NCBI RefSeq assembly: GCF_030028105.1 | Contig: NC_092371.1 | Coordinates: 204,288,031-204,352,030 of the forward strand | Direction of reading: 5' to 3' | Source: Mobula birostris | Lineage: Eukaryota | DNA: 64,000 nucleotides | In this document: in pieces, positions 13,721-63,665 of the stretch | Position numbering within the stretch: the first letter of the stretch is position 1 | How the letters are laid out: each line of letters begins with the position of its first letter | The notes under the pieces: model-generated | The model's input: the letters and a program-made list of their open reading frames with translations, nothing else | The model's database searches: none | What the model was told of the DNA's origin: nothing | Program-made: the position numbers and the translations under genes

Positions 13721-13885
13721 AAAAGAGGTGCAGTCAACGTTTCAAACCAAAATCTTTCAGCAGGATTGATATCTCGGCCCAAAACATCATCTGGACTTTT
13801 TTCCATAGATGCTGCCTGCCTGCTGAGTTCCTCCAACATTTGTGTGTGTTGCTTTGACTTATCTGCATATTTTCTCTTGTGTTTG
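13721..13885. mobile_element. Penelope-like terminal-repeat fragment with two opposed, degenerate hammerhead remnants
   Basis: Minus strand caatc-CTGCTGA...GAAACGTT-gactg, then plus strand tctcggccc-aaaacatc and the pLTR tail. Confidence 0.65.
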
Positions 13886-30510: not shown

Positions 30511-30874
30511 TACAAGCTTGATTATTATTCTGGTCTCTGGAAAGTGAAAGTAAAAGAAAAGGAAAACTTGTGATAATCAAATTTCATAATATAAAAATTA
30601 TCCTATATCTGTTTTTAATATATAAACACATCCTATTTATATAATATAAAAAGAGGCTATATTAAGATGCTGAGGAATAATTTTATAGACAAGAGCCTCA
30701 AAAGCCTCAGCTTACCATTGTACTGGATCTGAATGACACAATTAAATTCTATGCTTAATTGTGAACAGTGAACAAATTATTTCAACAGCTATTGGTTTTT
30801 GAGTTATGGATTCGAAGTGTGGGTAGAGTTGATTTTTTTCCGCCTATTTTTATTACCAAATCACTACTTTTTAG

Positions 30875-31018
30875 GTTATCAAGTTCTAGCGCCAGCTGCT
30901 TACTATGACCAGACTGGCACCTTAGTAGTGGGACCTGGAGCAAGAACTGGATTAGGGACACCAGTTAGGCTGGTAGCATCAACACCAGTTATCATCAGCT
31001 CCGCTGCCGCACAAGCTG
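30875..31018 (+). CDS. PUM2: PUM2 exon G ([26 protein letters not shown]...SSAAAQA), phase 1 to 1
   Basis: tttttag acceptor, gtaggt donor; 144 nt. Confidence 0.95.
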
Positions 31019-31412
31019 GTAGGTCATGATTTTAATATGAAGTGCTAATATTTATTGCTTTCAAGTGAAAGATGTGGCTGAAATGGCAAACTTACTGCTT
31101 GTCTGCTTCTTATCAGCAGCAATGGTCACAATATATGATCAGCAAAGCCTCATCAGGGGCACTAAACTCCTTTCAGAGTTCAATGTTTGCTCCCTTGGTT
31201 GAATTTTGTGCTTGTTTGATTTTATTTTATTTGTGAGTGGTCATGTGCCTGGCCCATGCATGCCCCTATTAAAGGTGCTATTCTCTCTCCCCCCCCCCCC
31301 CCCCACACTTGGAACATAGGAACATAATTCTTCAATCCCTGTTTTCACATTGCACATTCTTAAGCATAGCTGACTTAGGGCAGTGAACAATGCAGAGGAT
31401 GGTGACAGATTA

Positions 31413-31930
31413 CAGACATCCCACCTCTCCTGGAAGTTCCGGGAGTCTCCCACATATAAATAGTGGTTCCCTGATGCCCGCAAGTTATATATAATATCGC
31501 GGAAATCAATTTTTTTGTGAGCGAGAGAGAATGCGAGCGAGAGCGTGAGAGAGCGCACAAGCGAGCGAGAGCGCGCCATGGGAGAGTGTTCCAGAAAAAG
31601 AAAATATAAAACGTACGTCACCCCAGACTACACTAAAGTGTACCCCTGCCTAATAGGGGTCAAAAATAATGACAGTGTTGCTCACTGCACTGTTTGCAAC
31701 AGTGACTTTTCTATTGCCCATGGTGGGTTAAGGCTGTAAAAGACACATTGAGGTGAGTTTAACAGGTTTCATTCATTCATCAGCATAGCTAACGTTATTT
31801 AAACTAGCTGGCTAGCTGCCAAGAAGCTACTCCATTGCAGACGTCCCATCTCTCCCGGAGGTTCCGGGAATCTCCCGCAAATTGATGGTGTTACCTCCCT
31901 GAAAAGAGTTTTTGCAGGGTGGGATGTCTG
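31413..31930 (+). mobile_element. Non-autonomous hAT-like element with transposase N-terminal zinc-finger remnant
   Basis: 13-bp TIR CAGACATCCCACC / GGTGGGATGTCTG; 6-bp near-TSD agatta/agattg; AHCTVCNSDFSIAHGG (BED/TTF-like). Confidence 0.8.
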
Positions 31931-33164
31931 AGATTGCCATCTCTGAATATGAAATTGCTGGTGGAAATTCCATTGAAGGGAAGGGTTTTTCTTTTAAGTT
32001 TAGACATGTACAGTCCTGCATTTATAAAAAAATGTAGAAGTTGCCATTCAAGAACAGCAACTAGAAGTTGCCTGACACCATGTTTAGCCCAATATTACAG
32101 GGAGTAATTTATATTTTGTGGGCATTGGCCTTTTGGATAATGAAGTTGATCTTCAGTGATGAAAATTGAACAGTTGCTTCTAGTTACTGAATATTCTAGA
32201 CATCACTTGTAGATTATTTCACCATAAAGGTTAACTGCATATTTGGCAGTTAATTAGTAGGGCAGGGAGAGACAGATAGAGAGACAGTTTACCAAGTCAA
32301 ACCCAATAAAATCCCCGAACTTAACTCTTATCCCTATACATTGGTTAATTTCATAGATATAAGTGAATGCCCAGCATTTCCTCATCATTTTATAAATCAA
32401 TTTATTTTCAATTAAAATGAATCTGTTAAACATACTGTATACGTTCACTGCTGTTCATGCTACATTTCAACTGGGCACAGATCTATTTTTTGAGAGCTAT
32501 TAATTTGAGGAGCAAGAAAATACATTTTAAGCTGTGTACTCTGAACCTTTCTCAGCAATGCCACTTGGGTATGTCAGAAATATATTTTTACCCAGTTCTT
32601 AAGGCATGCTCAACAAACTCCATGCCTTACAAATCATTTTTTTCCCCCTAAAAAGTACTAATGTCCTACTAATGCTGCTGTCAATTTGTTTTGAATTATG
32701 AAAGATGTGTATAAACCAATGCAAGTCTCAACCCAGATTTTGGGAGACAAAAGAAAAATCTCAATATCCATCATAAGTTATGTGAAGGTCATGTAACTTC
32801 AAATGCATGAAGGTGGACCTTAGAGTCTACCTTGTTATAATCTTGCACCTTGATGTTTGCCTGCTCAGCCATTTCCTCTCTGACTGTTAGACTTTATTCT
32901 GCATTGTTTTACTTACTTTTACCTGGATGTACTATGTAATGATTTAATCTATATTAACGGTATACAAGACAACTTTTCACTCTATCTTGGTTCATACAGT
33001 AATAAACAAATTCCAATCCCTTATTGGAATTCCAATTTGAAATCCAATAAGGCCAGCATGAAATAAGTTTCAGCAGTTGAATGAACTGTTGATATTGAAG
33101 CTTAGCAAGCGTTTATTGATATAATTACAGCCATAACCGCGATGGGAATAAAACTGAATAGCTG

Positions 33165-33860
33165 GTATTCAATGTCGCAAAAACAAAGGAGCTGGTTGTG
33201 GACTACAGGAGGAATGGAGGCAGGCTAACCCCTGTAGTCATCAGTGGATCTGGGGTTGAGAGGGTGAACAACTTTAAGTTCCTCTGCATGCATATCACCA
33301 AGGACCTCACATGGTCTTTACATACCGGCTGTGTGGTGAAAAAAGCACAACAGTGCCTCTTTCACCTCAGACAGTTGAAGAAGTTTGGCTTGAGTCCCTA
33401 AATCCTAAGGACTTTCTACAGGGGCACAATTGAGAGCATCCTGACTGGCTGCGTCACTGCCTGGTATGGGAACTGTACTTCCCTCAATCGCAGGACTCTG
33501 CAGAGAGTGGTATGGACAGACCAGCACATCTGTGGATGTAAACTTCCCACTATTCAGGACATTTACAGCGACAGATGCAAAAAAAAAAAAGGGCCGGAAG
33601 GATCATTGAAGCCCCAAATCACTCCAACCACAAACTGTTCCAGCTGCTACCATCTGGAAATGGTATCACAGTATAAAAGCCAGGACCAACAGGCTCCAGG
33701 ACAGCTTCTTCCGTAAGGCCATCAGACTGATTAATTCACGCTGACACAATTATATTCTATGCTATTTTGACTGTTCTGTTGTATGTACTATTTATTATAA
33801 ATTACTATAAATTGCACATTCAAATGGAGATGTAACGTAAAGATTTTTACTCCTCGTATG
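33165..33860 (+). mobile_element. Rex1/L2-like LINE 3' fragment; its tail resumes at about 35566-35603
   Basis: KTKELVVDYRR, FKFL, IESILTGCVTAWYGNC motifs; aataaa-(caatt)n tail beyond the nested CR1. Confidence 0.8.
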
Positions 33861-35565
33861 TAGAAAACATAGAAAATAGGTGCAGGAGTAGGCCATTCGG
33901 CCCTTCGAGCCTGCACCGCCATTTATTATGATCATGACTGATCATCCAACTCAGAACCCCGCCCCAGCCTTCCCTCCATACCCCCTGATCCCCGTAGCCA
34001 CAAGGGCCATATCTAACTCCCTCTTAAATATAGCCAACGTACTGGCCTCAACTGCTTCCTGTGGCAGAGAATTCCACAGATTCACCACTCTCTGGGTGAA
34101 GAAGTTTTACCTAATCTCGGCCCAAAAGGCTTCCCCTTTATCCTCAAACTGTGACCCCTTGTTCTGGACTTCCCCAACATCGGGAACAATCTTCTTGCAT
34201 CTAGCCTGTCCAATCCCTTTAGGATTTTATACGTTTCAATCAGATCCCCCTCAATCTTCTAAATTCCAACGAGTACAAGCCCAGTTCATCCAGTCTTTCT
34301 TCATATGAAAGTCCTGCCATCCCAGGAATCAATCTGGTGAACCTTCTTTGTACTCCCTCTATGGCAAGGATGTCTTTCCTCAGATTAGGGGACCAAAACT
34401 GCACACAATACTCCAGGTGAGGTCTCACCAAGGCCTTGTACAACTGCAGTACTACCTCCCTGCTCCTGTACTCAAATCCTCTCGCTATAAATGCCAGCAT
34501 ACCATTCGCCTTTTTCACCGCCTGCTGTACCTGCATGCCCACTTTCAATGACTGGTGTATAATGACACCCAGGTCTCGTTGCACCTCCCCTTTTCCTAAT
34601 CGGCCACCATTCAGATAATAATCTGTTTTCCTATTTTTGTCACCAAAGTGGATAACTTCACATTTATCCACATTAAATTGTATCTGCCATGAATTTTCCC
34701 ACTCACCCAACCTATCCAAGTCACCCTGCATCCTCTTAGCATCCTCCTCACAGCTAACACTGCCACCCAGCTTCGTGTCATCCGCAAACTTGGAGATGCT
34801 GCATTTAATTCCCTCATCCAAGTCATTAATATATATTGTAAACAACTGGGGTCCCAGCACTGAGCCTTGCGGTACCCCACTAGTCACCGCCTGCCATTCT
34901 GAAAAGGTCCCGTTTATTCCCACTCTTTGCTTCCTGTCTGCTAACCAATTCTCCATCCACATCAATACCTTACCCCCAATACCGTGTGCTTTAAGTTTGC
35001 ACACTAATCTCCTGTGTGGGACCTTGTCAAAAGCCTTTTGAAAATCCAAATATACCACATCCACTGGTTCTCCCCTATCCACTCTACTAGTTACATCCTC
35101 AAAAAATTCAATGAGATTCGTCAGACATGATTTTCCCTTCACAAATCCATGCTGACTTTGTCCGATGGTTTCACCACTTTCCAAATGTGCTGTTATCACA
35201 TCTTTGATAACTGACTCCAGCAGTTTCCCCACCACCAACGTTAGGCTAACCAGTCTATAATTCCCCAGTTTCTCTCTCCCTCCTTTTTTAAAAAGTGGGG
35301 TTACATTAGCCACCCTCCAATCCTCAGGAACTAGTACAGAATCTAACGAGTTTTGAAAAATTATCACTAATGCATCCACTATTTCTTGGGCTAGTTCCTT
35401 AAGCACTCTAGGATGTAGACCATCTGGCCCTGGGGATTTATCTGCCTTCAATCCCTTCAATTTGCCTAACACCACTTCCCTACTAACAAGTATTTCGCTC
35501 AGTTCCTCCATCTCACTTGGACCCTCTGTCCCCTACTATTTCTGGAAGATTATTTATGTCCTCCT
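33861..35565 (-). mobile_element. Young 5'-truncated CR1 with an open 423-aa RT
   Basis: ORF 34240..35511 has all RT motifs (KSPGPDG, DFQKAFD, SGVPQGSVLGP, FADD); (tttctatg) tail. Confidence 0.95.
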
Positions 35566-36204
35566 GTGTGAAGGATATAAGAAATAAAGTCAATTCAAAT
35601 CAAGAAGATTGCCTATTTTGATGATGTCATGCCTCATGTTAGAAGGAATTACATAAAATACTTTGTTCCTTTTCCATTATTCTTCAAGGTGTTGCATTGT
35701 TACATGTCTTATGATTCTAGGCCATGTGGAGAAGAGAGTACTGTACCACCAGTAACTGTCTTGTAATAGGTAGTAGGTTCCAGGCATCAGTACAAAATGA
35801 CACGAATGATTGTCAAATAGTTATCTTAATGTGAGAAGCTATTCTGCAGATCAAATGGGAGTGATTAGAAAAAGGAGACCCGTTCTTTGCTGATGTGGTA
35901 CCTTTCTCATGTCATCCCATCGTAGGTAAATCAGAAACTTGGTGAATGTTATTGATTGCTGTCTGTCTCCCTTGTTTGGGAATTTAAGAGAAGTTAACCG
36001 GATTTCTTAAATCAATCAATTTTAAAACCTATCCATTTCTGGGCAATAATCAACCTTCCTTATATTTAAGGATCAATGAATATTTGTGTTTAAGATGATT
36101 TTATTCATTGATGTACTCATATCTCAATTACTCTGTACATTTCTGATCACCAAATGACAGGGAAAATGGGGTTGCACCGGACAGCCCGGAAGGACAATTT
36201 ACAA

Positions 36205-36385
36205 AGACTCCCTTTTCTGTTTCATTCTGGCTTCTTCTCCCTTCCTTTCCAATCCTGATGAAGGATCTCGGCCATAAACGTTGACTGTTCATTTCTGCAG
36301 CTGCTGCCTGACCTTTTGAGTTCCTCCAGTATTTTGTGTGTGTTGCTCTGGATTTCCAGCATCTCAGGATCCCTTGTGTTTACAA
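36205..36385 (+). mobile_element. Penelope-like terminal repeat with inactivated hammerhead (GAAA to TAAA) at 36250-36287
   Basis: caatc-CTGATGA-aggatctcggcca-TAAACGTT-gactg plus pLTR tail. Confidence 0.75.
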
Positions 36386-36639
36386 ATCTGTTTCCAAATC
36401 CTGAAAATCCTAGGTATGAGGGGAGATTGTGTAAGTTAAGGTAGCTTTATTTGCCACAAAAGAGGCTGAAGTGAGACTGAAATGAAGTGTGAAAACATAT
36501 GAATGGGCAAGAGAGTAGATAGGAATAACTTGAGATTGAACGATGCTTAACAAGGTGCTGGAAGCAGAAACCCTATTTACATTAAATTAGTATTGGATGT
36601 GTTCTTGAATCCTGAAAAAAGCTCTGCGCTTTATACTTG

Positions 36640-37102
36640 CAACACACACAAAATACTGGTGGAACAGAGCAGACCAGACAGACCAGAAGAAGCACAGTCG
36701 ATGTTTCGGGCCAAGACCCTTTGTCAGGACTCTAAAAGTTGAAGGGCTGAAGAAACTACAGATGGGGAGCAGTGAGAGAGGGTTTCACTAAACTCCCGTC
36801 GAAAAGAAGATTTAAACTTCTTCAGTGAAGGCATCACTGGAAGAGGCTTTGCAGTAGTTAATTTAAAAACGCAAACATGAGGAAATCTGCCGATGCTGGA
36901 AATTCAAGCAACACACACAAAATGCTGGTGGAACATAGCAGGCCAGACAGCATCCATTGGAAGAAGTACAGTCCTGATGAAGGATCTTGACCCGAAATGT
37001 CGACTGCTTCTTCCTATGGATGTTGTCTGGTCTGCTGCATTCCACCAGAATTTTGTGTGTGTTGCTTGAATTTCCAGCATCTGCAGAATTCCTCATATTT
37101 GC
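36640..37102. mobile_element. Non-autonomous Penelope-like element: pLTR, short ORF stub, pLTR plus inverted pLTR
   Basis: Direct repeats near 36640 and 36907, inverted arm 37002-37102; near-TSD tgcgctttatacttg / tgcactttatgcttg. Confidence 0.85.
36969..37006 (+). ncRNA. Minimal type-I hammerhead ribozyme motif, sense to PUM2
   Basis: CAGUC-CUGAUGA-aggaucuugaccc-GAAA-U-GUC^GACUG; stem I CAGUC/GACUG perfect; core intact; stem II has one mismatch and position 15.2 is U. Confidence 0.75.
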
Positions 37103-37129
37103 ACTTTATGCTTGATGTTTAGATTGGGA

Positions 37130-39240
37130 TAATGTCAAGGCTGCAGTAAAGGAGGAAGTCATGGATTGTCTACTGAGTCAGTGTGGGTGGAAGTTAGTGG
37201 CAGAAACTCTACAGTGTGTTTTTTTTTATTGACCCCACAATAGTGACAGGGATATCAAGGAGCAGGTAGGGAGGCAGATTCTAGAACCGTGCAATAACAA
37301 TAGGGTTGTTGTGATGGGACTTTCCTAATATTGATGAGCATCTCCTTAGCGCATGGGGTTTAGATGGGGTGGATTTTGTTACGCGTGTTCAGAAGGTTTC
37401 CTGACGCAATATGTAGATAAGCCAACTAGAGGAAAGGCTGTACTTGATCTGGTGTTGGGAAATGAACCTGGTCAGGTGTCAGATCTCTTGGTGAGAAAGC
37501 ATTTTGGAGGTAGTCATCACAACTCTTACCTCCTTTACCATAGTGCTGGAGAAGGATAGGAGCAGACAATTTGGGAAAACATTTAATTCGGGTAGGAGGA
37601 AATATGATGCTATTAGGCAAGAACTTGGGAGCATAAATTGGGAGCAGATGTTCTCAGAGAAATGCATGGCAGAAATGTGGCAAATGTTCACTGAGCATTT
37701 GCATGGCATTCTGCATAAATATGTTCCGCTGAGGCAGGGAAAGGATGGTAGAGTAAAAGAACCATGGTGTACAAAGGACATGGAAAATCCAGTTAAGAAC
37801 AAACAAAAAGCTAATGAAAGGTTCAAGAAACTAGGTACTGAGAGTGTTCTGGAAAATTACAAGGTTTCCAGGAAGGAGCTTAAGAATGAAATTAGGAGAG
37901 CTAGAAGGGGCTATGAGAAGATTTTGGCAAGCAAGATTAGGGAAAACCCCAAGGCTTTCTACAAGTATGTGAAGAGCAAAAGTATGAGTTGTGTGAGAAA
38001 GGGACCAATCAGGTGTGATACTGGAAACATGTGCATGCTGGAGTAGGTAGCAGAGGTGCTTAATGAATACTTTGCTTCATAGTTCACCGGGAAAAGGACC
38101 TTGGCATTTGTGGGGATGACTTACAGCAGACTGAATGCTTGAGCTTATAGACATTAAGAAAGAGAATGTGTTGGAGCCTTTGAAAAGCATTAAGTTAGAT
38201 ATGTCGCAGGACTGGACGAGATGTACCCCAGGGTACTATGGCAAATGAGCGAGATTGCTGAGCTTCTGGTGATGACCTTTGTATCTTCAATAGGGACAGG
38301 AGAAGTATTGGAGGGTTGCAAATGTTATTCCCTTGTTTAAGAAAGGGAGTAAAGATAACCCAGGAAATTATAGACCAGTGATCTTACTTAAGTGGTGGGC
38401 AAGTTGTTAAAGAAGATCCTCAAAGGCAGGATTTATGAGCATTTGTAGAGACATAATCTGATTAAGAATAGTCAGCATGGCTTTGTCAAGGGCAGGTCGT
38501 GCCTTACAAGCCTAATTAAATTCTTTGAGAGGTAACAAAACACATTAATAAAGGTGGAGCACTGGATGTACTGTATATGGATTTCAGTAGGGTCCCCCAT
38601 TCAAGGCTCATTCAGAAAGTAATGAGGCTTGAGAAACTAAGAGACCTTGCTCTGTGGATCCAAAATTGGCTTGCCCACAGAAGGCAAAGAGTGGTTGTAG
38701 ATGGTTCATATTCTGCATTGAGCACAGTGACCCAGTGGTGTTCCACAGGGATCTTTTCTGGGACCCCTCCTCTTTGTGATTTTTGTAAATGACCTGGATG
38801 AGGAAGTAGAAGGGTGGGTTAGTAATTTTGCTGATAACACTTACTGACTGGGCTGTGACGTGGCAGATGGAGTTTAATCCAGGTGAGTGTGAGGTGGTTC
38901 AATTTGTTAGGTCAAATTTGAAGACAGAATATCAAACTAATGTTAAGACACTTTGGCTGTGTGGAGGATCAGAGTGATCTTGTTGTCTGCGTCCATAGGA
39001 CACTCAAAGCTGCTGCGCACATTGACAGTGTTGTTAAGAAGGCGCATGGTGTATAGGCCTTCATCAGCTGTGGGATTGAGTTCAAGAACAATGAGGTAGT
39101 GTTACAGCTTTATAAGACCTTAGACCCCACTTGGAGTACTGTGTTCAGTTCTGGTCACCTCACTACAGGAAGAATGTGGATGCTATAGAAAGAGTGCAGA
39201 GGAGATTTAATAAGGATGTTGCCTGGATTGGAGAACATGC
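37130..39240 (+). mobile_element. Decayed CR1 ORF2, similar to 19872-23800
   Basis: FLTQYVDKPTRGKAVLDLVLGNEPGQV; ENPKAFYKYVKSK; RT remnants with stops. Confidence 0.88.
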
Positions 39241-39343
39241 AGTCATGCACTGTTGAACTTGAACACCACCCCGGTCGGCCGGTCAGCAAGAACATTGTCA
39301 ATATTAAACCGGTCCGTGGTGCAAAAAAGGTTGGGGACCCCTG
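39241..39343 (+). mobile_element. hAT-Charlie-type 3' end fragment
   Basis: aaaccggtccgtggtgcaaaaaaggttggggacccctg, the characteristic MER1/Charlie terminus (recalled). Confidence 0.65.
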
Positions 39344-41421
39344 ACGTAGGCGATCATGGTGACCATAATTATTGTTGGCAAATCCTTCTACCTTTGCTGC
39401 CTTCTGGGCAGATTGCTACCTGGTGTAAATGTTCAAATGGTATGCTTGGATTTGTGCATACACTAAGTTTAGTCTGAGGTCTAACTTTCATATGCAAAAT
39501 TGTTAGAATTTAAGAAAGCATAAAATAGAAATGAATAAAGGTAATTTCTAGAGATTATCTACAACTGTCTGATGCTCCTGTGGTCTAAAATGAAGAACTA
39601 AATGCCACTGTCTTCCACCTGTAATCGTATTTAAGGCTGGTGATTTTCCAGAAACATTGTTAGCTTGACCTAAGGTGTATGTGTTTCCATGGAATATGAT
39701 TGTACATATCTGTATATCTAGATCTAGGTTTATCAAGGATAATTTTTCACAAGTTAATTAATCCCCAAGTTCTATAAATTAAAAAAATTCCAACTGCTTT
39801 TATCAAAATCTAAGTGATCTATTTCTACTTGAATGTCTGAAGGGGCTAGCATCCCAGCAGTGGAAGTAGTCATAAATAAGTCTGAACCATAGACAACTGT
39901 TTTGCAAGTGTTTTTGATTTTCACAGGAGTTAAAATGAGATGGAGTGTGGCTTAGGTCAAGTTGTGAAGTTGTTTCATTTCACCAGATTGAGAATTTTCA
40001 TGCAACTCGTCCTTTGATTGGAACATGAACTAAAATGACTTTAGCTATTCCTTCAACTGTGTCCACTTGCAATATAATCTACTTGTTGTGTATTCTTATG
40101 CTGTTGTTGAAAAAAGTCTGATCACCTTTGCTGAACCCATTACCTTCATTATGGCATTGTTTGCATCTGTATCACCTTGTCTGTTAATTCACAAGTTCTT
40201 TCATCATGGTTGAGAGATGTTTTGTTCATTTAATCCATAGGCAGCCAATTTATTTGTAACAACTTAACTATTTTAAGTGTGTCACCTTTGAAGTAAAAAT
40301 CGAGATCTCTTTTTTTAAAGACCTTTGGGGCAGGGTGTGGAATTTATCAATGATCTTAGAAAAAGACGGGCAAAGAATTGACTTCACATGTTTATGCTCA
40401 CTGAACTAAATTGAAGGAAGCATCCTTCCTTTTGCCTTAGTGAATTTCATTTCCATTGGATACAGATTCATTTCTTATATTTTAAAGTCTGATCCCAATG
40501 AATTTGCTTTATTTGTTTTGGAAATGTGTCCAATTTACCAAAAACTATCCATCTGTCTAAAACTGGATGATATTCCAGAATTTGGTAAGCTAGTGCAAGC
40601 TGCGCTAATTTTAAAAATATTTCCTTCTTCTCGTTAATTTTGAAGCAACAGGTGTACTTGATTAGCCTTGTTAGCAGTATCTATTGACAGTGTTTCTAAA
40701 TGAATGATCAATAAATGTTCATTTTTCCGTCTTTTTCAAAGGATGTCATTTCATTATGTTTCATTTTTGGTTGTGGAGGATGCTGAACTGTGGAAGAAGT
40801 AACCTTGCCACATAGGATGCTCCTTATTTTCCACAGGAACCGTCCTCCCCTAGAAAGCCCAATATGTTCTTTTCGGAAGAATATTGTACAGAATTTTGGT
40901 CTCCTGATCTTTTTGCTTCTCTTGTGTAATAAAGAATCTGGTGCCTTGCATCATTAGGGCGAAGTTCCTTTTGAGATCCATTGCATGGTATGATGGTCCC
41001 TTCATCCTTTTGATTTTTCCCATTGGTAACCTAGGCTCAATTCTATTGATATGTGGAGGATGTTTTCCTTTGTAGAATGAGGAAGATCCTATAAGGTGGG
41101 TAGTTTGACATCTCAATCCTATTAGATCTTAATTACTGAGATACTGCATCCCATTTCTTGAGAGTGATTGCCAAAGTAATTTTCTAGTTGCATTTATGTT
41201 TCATTTTATAATTTAACTGGAGGTTCTGTGAAAGTTAATTTGTTCTAGATTATTCCTCACATAGCTTTCTATGCAAATTTTTTGTTGATCTCATTATGCA
41301 CTTTAATTAAGTTTCTCTATCTCCCTCAGTGGAGCCATTTTTAGAAAATGTGACATTTCCTTGTTTTAACAATTTTAACATTTGTCTTGGCATTTTTTTT
41401 TTGGTAATTTTGCTGAAACAG

Positions 41422-41709
41422 CTGTGGCAGCTTCAGCTAACGGAACAGCAAGCAATTTAGCAGCAGCAGCAAATGGTCTCTTCCGCCCAATTGGAACACA
41501 ACCACAACAGCAGCAGCAGCAGCAGCAACAAAGTAACAACTTGCAGTCAAGCTCCTTTTATGGCAGCAGCTCCCTTTCAAATAGTTCTCAGAGCAGTTCA
41601 CTGTTCTCTCAAGGACCAGGCCAGCCAAGCAACACATCACTTAGTTTTGGGAGCAGTAACTCACTGGGTGCTGCTATTGGCTCTGCACTTGGAGGATTTG
41701 GATCAGCAG
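41422..41709 (+). CDS. PUM2: PUM2 exon H (AVAASANGT...polyQ...SALGGFGSA), phase 1 to 1
   Basis: aaacag acceptor, gtgagt donor; 288 nt; within ORF 41382..41717. Confidence 0.93.
41505..41531 (+). repeat. Coding polyglutamine tract Q9: CAA(CAG)6CAACAA
   Basis: Read directly in exon H. Confidence 0.95.
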
Positions 41710-53797: not shown

Positions 53798-53989
53798 CAC
53801 AAATAAGAGAAAATTTGCAGATGCTGGAAATCCAGGCAACACACACAAAATGCTGGAGGAACTCAGCAGGCTTGAGAAGGGTCCTGCTGAAGGGTCTTGG
53901 CCCGAAATGTCAACTGTACTCTTGTTTTTTTTTCTCCCAATATATGCTGCCTGGCCTGCTAAGTTCCTCCAGCATTTCGTCTGTGTTGC
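53798..53989. mobile_element. Penelope-derived hairpin element with central hammerhead remnant (CUGCUGA, mutated) at 53879-53916
   Basis: Inverted pLTR arms; 14-bp near-TSD atccaaataacagt / atccaagtaacagt. Confidence 0.85.
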
Positions 53990-56369: not shown

Positions 56370-56596
56370 AAAGGGAGCAATGAATCATAGGGAGAATGTT
56401 CACAAGCCTTTAATACGCATTCTCAACAAGTGAAGGTACCAGAAATACAGTTTTGTAAAATTAAGACAATAATATGACAATATTATGCTTGGCATACTTT
56501 TATGTGATCAGTGAATTACTTGTCTGACAATATAAGTATAGGTTGTTGATACCTAGGCAGATTTTTTTTATATAGCTGAACAAGGTCATTAAATAA

Positions 56597-56700
56597 ACAA
56601 CACACACAAAAGTTGCTGGTGAACGCAGCAGGCCAGGCAGCATCTCTAGAAAGAGGTGCAGTTGACGTTTCAGGCCGAGACCCTTCGTCAGGACTAACTG
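56597..56700 (-). mobile_element. Penelope-like terminal repeat fragment
   Basis: Same pLTR as 36640-37102, CpGs retained. Confidence 0.8.
56659..56696 (-). ncRNA. Minimal hammerhead ribozyme motif with fully intact core, antisense to PUM2
   Basis: UAGUC-CUGACGA-agggucucggccu-GAAAC-GUC^AACUG; palindromic ACGU stem III; one C.A mismatch in stem I. Confidence 0.75.
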
Positions 56701-63542: not shown

Positions 63543-63665
63543 CCGATGTAGAGGAGGCTGCACCAGGAGCACCGGATGCAATAGATGACACCAACAGACT
63601 CACAAGTGAAGTGTTGCCTCACTTGGAAGGACAGTTTGGGGCCCTGAATGGTGGCAAGAGAGGCA
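63543..63665 (-). mobile_element. Penelope-like element GIY-YIG endonuclease fragment
   Basis: QVRQHFTCESVGVIYCIRCSWCSLLYIG in ORF 63473..63673. Confidence 0.85.

Follow-up and report, generated by a model that had tools for sequence, protein, structure and literature searches.

A hammerhead-tipped hairpin in a PUM2 intron is very probably a head-to-head junction of a Penelope-like element

The hairpin of about 100 bp that carries a hammerhead core at its tip in a PUM2 intron of Mobula birostris is very probably a head-to-head junction of a Penelope-like element (PLE), likely formed by annealing of cDNAs via hammerhead stem I, and the hammerhead at its tip is predicted to leave the PUM2 transcript uncut. 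This hairpin, or rod, turned out to be the inverted junction of a 460-bp PLE insertion at positions 36640-37099 of the window (the whole 64,000-nt stretch of DNA analysed) and not a stand-alone element. What was observed directly is the family to which it belongs, its layout and target duplication, its mutations and the recurrence of the junction. The original prediction had favoured a functional viroid-like rod that could cut the nascent intron and had named an inert Penelope relic as its fallback; we judge the relic to be the best reading.

Results

Anatomy of the insertion and fold of the rod

Table 1. Features of the Penelope-like insertion and its host intron in the window
Feature	Position	Strand	Remarks
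Host PUM2 intron	31018..41411	+	about 10.4 kb; bounds approximate, from protein alignment
Target-site duplication, left copy	36625..36639		13 of 15 nt identical to 37100-37114
Tail-less pLTR end (3' end of the minus-strand body)	36640..36699	-	78-79% to reference family copy; inverted pair I5
Second hammerhead, antisense to PUM2	36700..36731	-	core G8 replaced by A; from motif scans
Stub of the 5' region of the PLE ORF, continuing the left arm	36731..36870	-	from family match
Left arm of the rod: minus-strand pLTR and tail region	36871..36973	-	begins exactly at the hammerhead cut position
Minimal type I hammerhead	36969..37006	+	stem I 36969-36973/37002-37006, core 36974-37001
Apex hammerhead, details	extra A 36981; stem II 36982-36985/36990-36993; predicted cut 37001/37002	+	
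Right arm of the rod: inverted, 5'-truncated pLTR copy with its tail	37002..37099	+	
Target-site duplication, right copy	37100..37114		15-nt direct repeat flanking the whole insertion

Alignment of the minus strand of 36973-36731 with a near full-length family copy (L142) showed 93% identity over 243 nt, spanning the hammerhead cut position, the pLTR, the tail region and the start of the ORF; 40 other genomic matches to this segment were found at 92-94%. The alignment of the left arm begins at reference position 144, which is the core start (116) plus 28. Read on its minus strand, the insertion consists of pLTR, stub and pLTR, a partial tandem, and an inverted, 5'-truncated copy lies adjacent to it. 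A tail is present at one outer end only, and the two hammerhead cores are on opposite strands (Table 1). On all four structural features tested, the insertion is an EN+ PLE.

Aligned as reverse complements, the arms (36871-36973 and 37002-37102) differ by exactly 10 mismatches and one 2-nt indel, the very figures that had been given as approximate, and the 28-nt apex left between them (36974-37001) is the hammerhead core, with the arms extending stem I as claimed. The segment 36860-37112 folded at -162.4 kcal/mol (z -19.6), a value that none of 200 shuffles reached, and the opposite strand of the rod folded equally well (z -18.9). The folding check named with the original prediction returned the single rod, but the apex did not take the shape of a hammerhead in the predicted fold. 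The hairpin described there is real, but the insertion to which it belongs is larger than the rod. ADAR may edit a 100-bp intronic duplex in passing, as it would thousands of other inverted copies, and editing or dicing of the rod is a possible incidental side effect.

Counted by hand, the arm mismatches comprise three that give G-U pairs on the sense strand, three that do so on the antisense strand and four transversions; across the junction loci described below that passed the ungapped filter, the split was 17 sense, 17 antisense and 15 transversions. With neither sense-strand bias nor compensation, the arms carry no sign of selection.

Host gene and relatives

A PUM2 protein found by homology was aligned exon by exon to the window (tblastn) and identified PUM2, on the + strand, as the host gene. 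The rod sits between coding exons 30874-31017 and 41412-41708, which are consecutive in the PUM2 protein, and the + strand of the contig carries PUF repeats. The host exons are closer to the PUM2 than to the PUM1 protein (e.g. 94% vs 81%), whereas a paralogue on contig C34 displayed the opposite pattern, PUM1 fitting better than PUM2. The position of the hammerhead on the sense strand of PUM2 pre-mRNA, as originally predicted, is borne out by this mapping of + strand exons around the rod. Two LINE-like fragments in opposite orientation flank the Penelope insertion, one at 34240-35532 (-), with an RT match, and one at about 37100-38500 (+). These LINE-like flanks form the inverted pairs I2 and I3 (71-77%) and add a further source of imperfectly paired duplex RNA to the intron.

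DNA reads of relatives yielded a contig from organism B (about 1% diverged) that enters the Penelope insertion. In organisms C and D, which are 7-10% diverged, the alignment of the contigs ends at 36639, where the left duplication ends, and a further 78 and 163 letters follow without matching the insertion; the contig from organism E stops earlier, at 36620. The insertion boundary at 36639 is confirmed, since the contigs of relatives stop there. Judged from where the alignments end, the site is likely empty in organisms C and D, and the insertion is likely lineage-restricted and absent in relatives 7-10% diverged.

The Penelope-like family in the genome

Ten frames from long family copies were scanned for protein domains. 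RVT_1 was detected in three of them (best E 7e-7, 0.1 bit under the curated cut-off), a score that fits decayed frames, and GIY-YIG in one, downstream of the RT and over the cut-off (E 2e-5). Long copies (L142 and L136) carry hammerheads at both ends. This RT and GIY-YIG family, together with the 93% identity of the stub to a long copy, upholds the Penelope origin originally proposed. Exact matches of one 26-nt native-context hammerhead motif in the 4.0-Gb genome revealed at least 47,907 family copies, a lower bound on family size as it rests on a single 26-mer. Among 100 of these matches listed, a hand count of pairs within 2.1 kb gave 11 head-to-head and one tail-to-tail. A DNA search with the rod, in which 40 of 4,025 candidates were scored, gave loci with matches on both strands in almost every case; among the best matches, another 24 loci that were inspected had varied apices.

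The window itself contains five more family fragments (1454-1547, 13772-13880, 36253-36381, 56595-56700 and 63546-63663); the family core at 56695 (-) is near-intact and antisense to PUM2, and that at 36256 (+) has lost G12. A later PUM2 intron holds a second, more decayed fold-back of the family (53800-53989); a hammerhead-like segment lies near its tip, and its flanks seem to contain a duplication of about 14 nt.

Recurrence of the stem I junction

The same stem I junction was found at 141 loci genome-wide (74 forward, 67 reverse; control 0), with a pattern that replaces a narrower one, which missed the main subfamilies and retrieved only 7 loci. We examined the first 30 of the 141 loci, the window's own included. 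Each of the other 29 is a short fold-back standing alone, with a tail on just one arm (left in 16, right in 13); they come from several subfamilies. Both tail sides and several subfamilies are expected of repeated independent events. Target duplications, mostly 12-14 nt long, scored at least 9 in 27 of the 30 loci and in none of 90 shuffled (mismatched) pairs; that of the window insertion scored 7, under the cut of 9. Arm identity at the window copy (88%) is the lowest of the 30, the others reaching 91-100%, and core, stem II and palindrome are all kept in 13 of the 30.

Joins at other short microhomologies yield junctions that lack a hammerhead; one at the neighbouring 6-nt palindrome GTCGAC was detected at 74 loci (148 matches, each locus appearing twice). 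The stem I junction, with a 4-nt overlap, is about twice as common (141 vs 74) on patterns that differ in length.

Several loci show peculiarities at the junction. About 12 of the 100 cut-site starts listed, from 242 in all, have two nucleotides swapped at the stem I junction (L115, L122 and L129 are of this type), which looks like a micro-inversion inside an 8-nt quasi-palindrome. One arm end, at L035, has a 10-nt stutter right at the stem I junction. At L169 and L173 the arms differ at one subfamily-diagnostic site, as fits copying from two RNAs; a single transition would also explain this. Seven identical palindromic junction 28-mers lie within about 620 kb (G000:C17:31971049-32587974), a cluster that is probably a segmental or tandem duplication.

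Arm starts at the cut position

The start of the left arm exactly at the cut position could mean that the relic's junction records ribozyme cleavage: reverse transcription would have stopped at the cut-made 5' end of the template RNA, and the left arm copied from this hammerhead-cut RNA would then have been joined at stem I. Genome-wide, 242 arms start exactly at the cut as compared to 102 at the one control position, four bases downstream, and about 104 vs 65 are left after removal of hot spots by hand, figures extrapolated from the 100 of 242 cut-site and 100 of 102 control matches listed. However, by hand count about 57 of the 100 cut-site starts listed belong to the stem I junction or a 2-nt variant of it, for which microhomology predicts the same base. 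A filter that excludes the stem I junction returned 399 matches. Among the 100 of these listed, 7 of them with indels and left out of the count, 9-10 copies start at the cut, but hand counting placed 16 starts at -3, 11 at -6 and 9 each at +3 and +4; the immediate neighbours -1 and +1 have only 2 and 1. Furthermore, the sequence continues uncut across the site in at least 47,907 copies, and for an anole PLE it is described that insertion did not need cleavage and that no reads ended at the site (PMC11167929). A mild excess of starts at the cut position is possible from these counts; a clear spike was not seen. We consider it unlikely that the relic's junction records cleavage, and equally doubtful that the stem I junctions, 141 or more in number, form a germ-line fossil record of hammerhead activity.

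One junction common to 141 copies, and compact, similarly sized fold-backs with target duplications at 29 of 30 sampled loci, would also be in line with a self-propagating palindromic mini-element family (MITE- or retrozyme-like), of which the rod would be a member moving as a unit. This is very unlikely, given that the tail changes sides (16 left vs 13 right), that subfamily marks vary between copies and, in L169 and L173, also between the arms at one site, and that apices vary widely among the best DNA matches. In addition, the window copy carries an extra 230-nt body, and no same-sense hammerhead tandem bounds the unit, as would be expected of a retrozyme.

State of the apex hammerhead

The apex hammerhead retains every catalytic position of its core. 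The conserved core, the extra nucleotide after A9 and the G10.1-C11.1 pair are all present, in accordance with the minimal dimer-type hammerhead that had been claimed. We compared it with 119 cores collected from fetched loci, a set that the search patterns biased towards intact cores. The window core departs from the family at five positions, including 36984, 36990 and 36998, and two of these changes are damaging: the A at 36984 creates an A-C mismatch in stem II (115 of the 119 cores have G), and the U at 36998 (102 of the 119 have C) breaks the 15.2-16.2 palindrome for dimer stem III. Pair probabilities in stem II were 0.32, 0.32, 0.0 and 0.005, as compared to 0.88-1.0 in the two commonest family cores, and those of proximal stem I were only 0.22-0.35 because the apex misfolds. 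No dimer stem III duplex was predicted for the window core, and lengthening stem I does not make up for the absent stem III.

A relaxed scan of the window revealed no intact sense-strand partner core. A search of the whole window with Rfam gave no match at gathering scores. At E up to 10, matches were confined to generic hairpin (microRNA) models and, being far below their cut-offs, were rejected; no hammerhead model was among them. Pairing of the apex core with the antisense copy 250 nt upstream was not supported (probability 0.0). The mutated hammerhead of the window copy is predicted to be inactive, and cleavage of the intron is unlikely. The A-C mismatch in stem II and the lost stem III palindrome speak against the functional, intron-cutting rod of the original prediction, and so do the occurrence of the same architecture at 141 loci on both strands and the lack of a sign of selection or conservation.

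Co-option of the rod as a PUM2 regulator, affecting the gene through cleavage of the nascent intron or as a substrate of ADAR or Dicer, would agree with its sense orientation in the intron, its stable 100-bp duplex, its intact core nucleotides and the active intronic hammerheads described for RECK and C10orf118 of amniotes (PMC10761166), but is highly improbable in view of the stem II and stem III defects, arms without strand bias or compensation, the likely absence in relatives 7-10% diverged, the lack of any Rfam hammerhead match up to E 10 and of an intact sense-strand partner core in the relaxed scan of the window, the description of minimal PLE hammerheads as having no monomer and low dimer activity (PMC4209133) and that of an anole PLE hammerhead as needing the element's protein (PMC11167929).

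Discussion

We infer the following course for the head-to-head junction. The PLE endonuclease would nick both target strands about 14 nt apart, and each nick would prime reverse transcription at one of two start sites bounding the tail. The two resulting cDNAs, one with and one without the tail, would meet head to head and be joined where they share a few bases. Stem I would supply these bases, with a cDNA ending in AGTC pairing with one ending in GACT, which is always possible because the two stem I strands are complementary. Such pairing leaves exactly one hammerhead core between the arms, and the "locked stem I" of the original prediction would thus be a by-product of the join. In twin-primed L1 inversions, the junction is formed by microhomology. 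The free choice of tail side fits the joining of two cDNAs. Since its insertion, the window copy would have decayed neutrally and would form a passive duplex in the pre-mRNA that leaves with the intron.

In vitro, the purified protein of an anole PLE nicks and extends both target strands, and its reverse transcription starts at two sites bounding the tail (PMC11167929). Arkhipova and colleagues interpreted junction palindromes as self-priming on an antisense template (PMC3846280), and fold-back self-priming could give similar shapes by a different route. Counted against the joining of two cDNAs and an inactive hammerhead are the duplication score of 7 at the window insertion, the intact catalytic bases of the core and the excess of stem I junctions; something beyond microhomology may favour the stem I junction (141 vs 74; 242 vs 102).

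The rod most likely does not matter for PUM2. The tens of thousands of copies of its family permit counting where PLE cDNAs stop and join, and such counts bear on the origin of inverted pLTRs and on the cutting of minimal hammerheads in vivo. If the junctions were fossils of cleavage, they would be in vivo evidence for a role of PLE hammerheads, which in vitro work has left open. For tests, the 13 fold-backs among the 30 sampled that keep an intact core are more suitable substrates than the window copy. Dimer cleavage of PLE hammerhead variants is the topic of PMC5785218, as cited in PMC6765202. Junctions at hammerhead stem I were not found in the literature searched, mostly without subscription papers and supplements, which is weak evidence of novelty.

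Like the intronic hammerheads of RECK and C10orf118 in amniotes, the window hammerhead lies on the sense strand of an intron. In the amniote hammerheads stem III is stable, and their description is that of active, conserved ribozymes (PMC10761166), whereas the window hammerhead shows neither conservation at the orthologous site nor Rfam-grade structure and belongs to a high-copy repeat, of which it is one decayed, likely lineage-restricted copy. Inverted L1 insertions made by twin priming (PMC2837659) share with the window insertion an inverted truncated copy between target duplications; they differ in element class, and in the window insertion both arms copy the same pLTR region and are hence complementary and form a hairpin.

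The minimal hammerheads of metazoan PLEs (PMC4209133) resemble the apex core in being type I without loop III, in their 4-5 bp stem I, in an extra nucleotide between 9 and 10.1 and in the G10.1-C11.1 pair. In contrast to them, the window core no longer has one pair of stem II or the 15.2-16.2 palindrome; stem II of its family has 4 bp, and the inversion lengthens its stem I to about 100 bp. The closest likeness in layout is found in Pen2a_Av (PMC3846280) and the general PLE scheme (PMC8557442), where pLTR segments also lie in tandem around ORF sequence, an adjacent inverted pLTR overlaps at the junction, a target duplication is present and a tail of 30-40 nt occurs at one outer end only. Compared with Pen2a_Av, the window insertion has its ORF cut to a 140-nt stub and a duplication of about 14 nt instead of 8-10, and its junction lies on stem I with one core forming the loop. 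The window insertion is an ordinary transposon relic, a partial tandem plus an inverted pLTR with one tail, in a layout that is already known.
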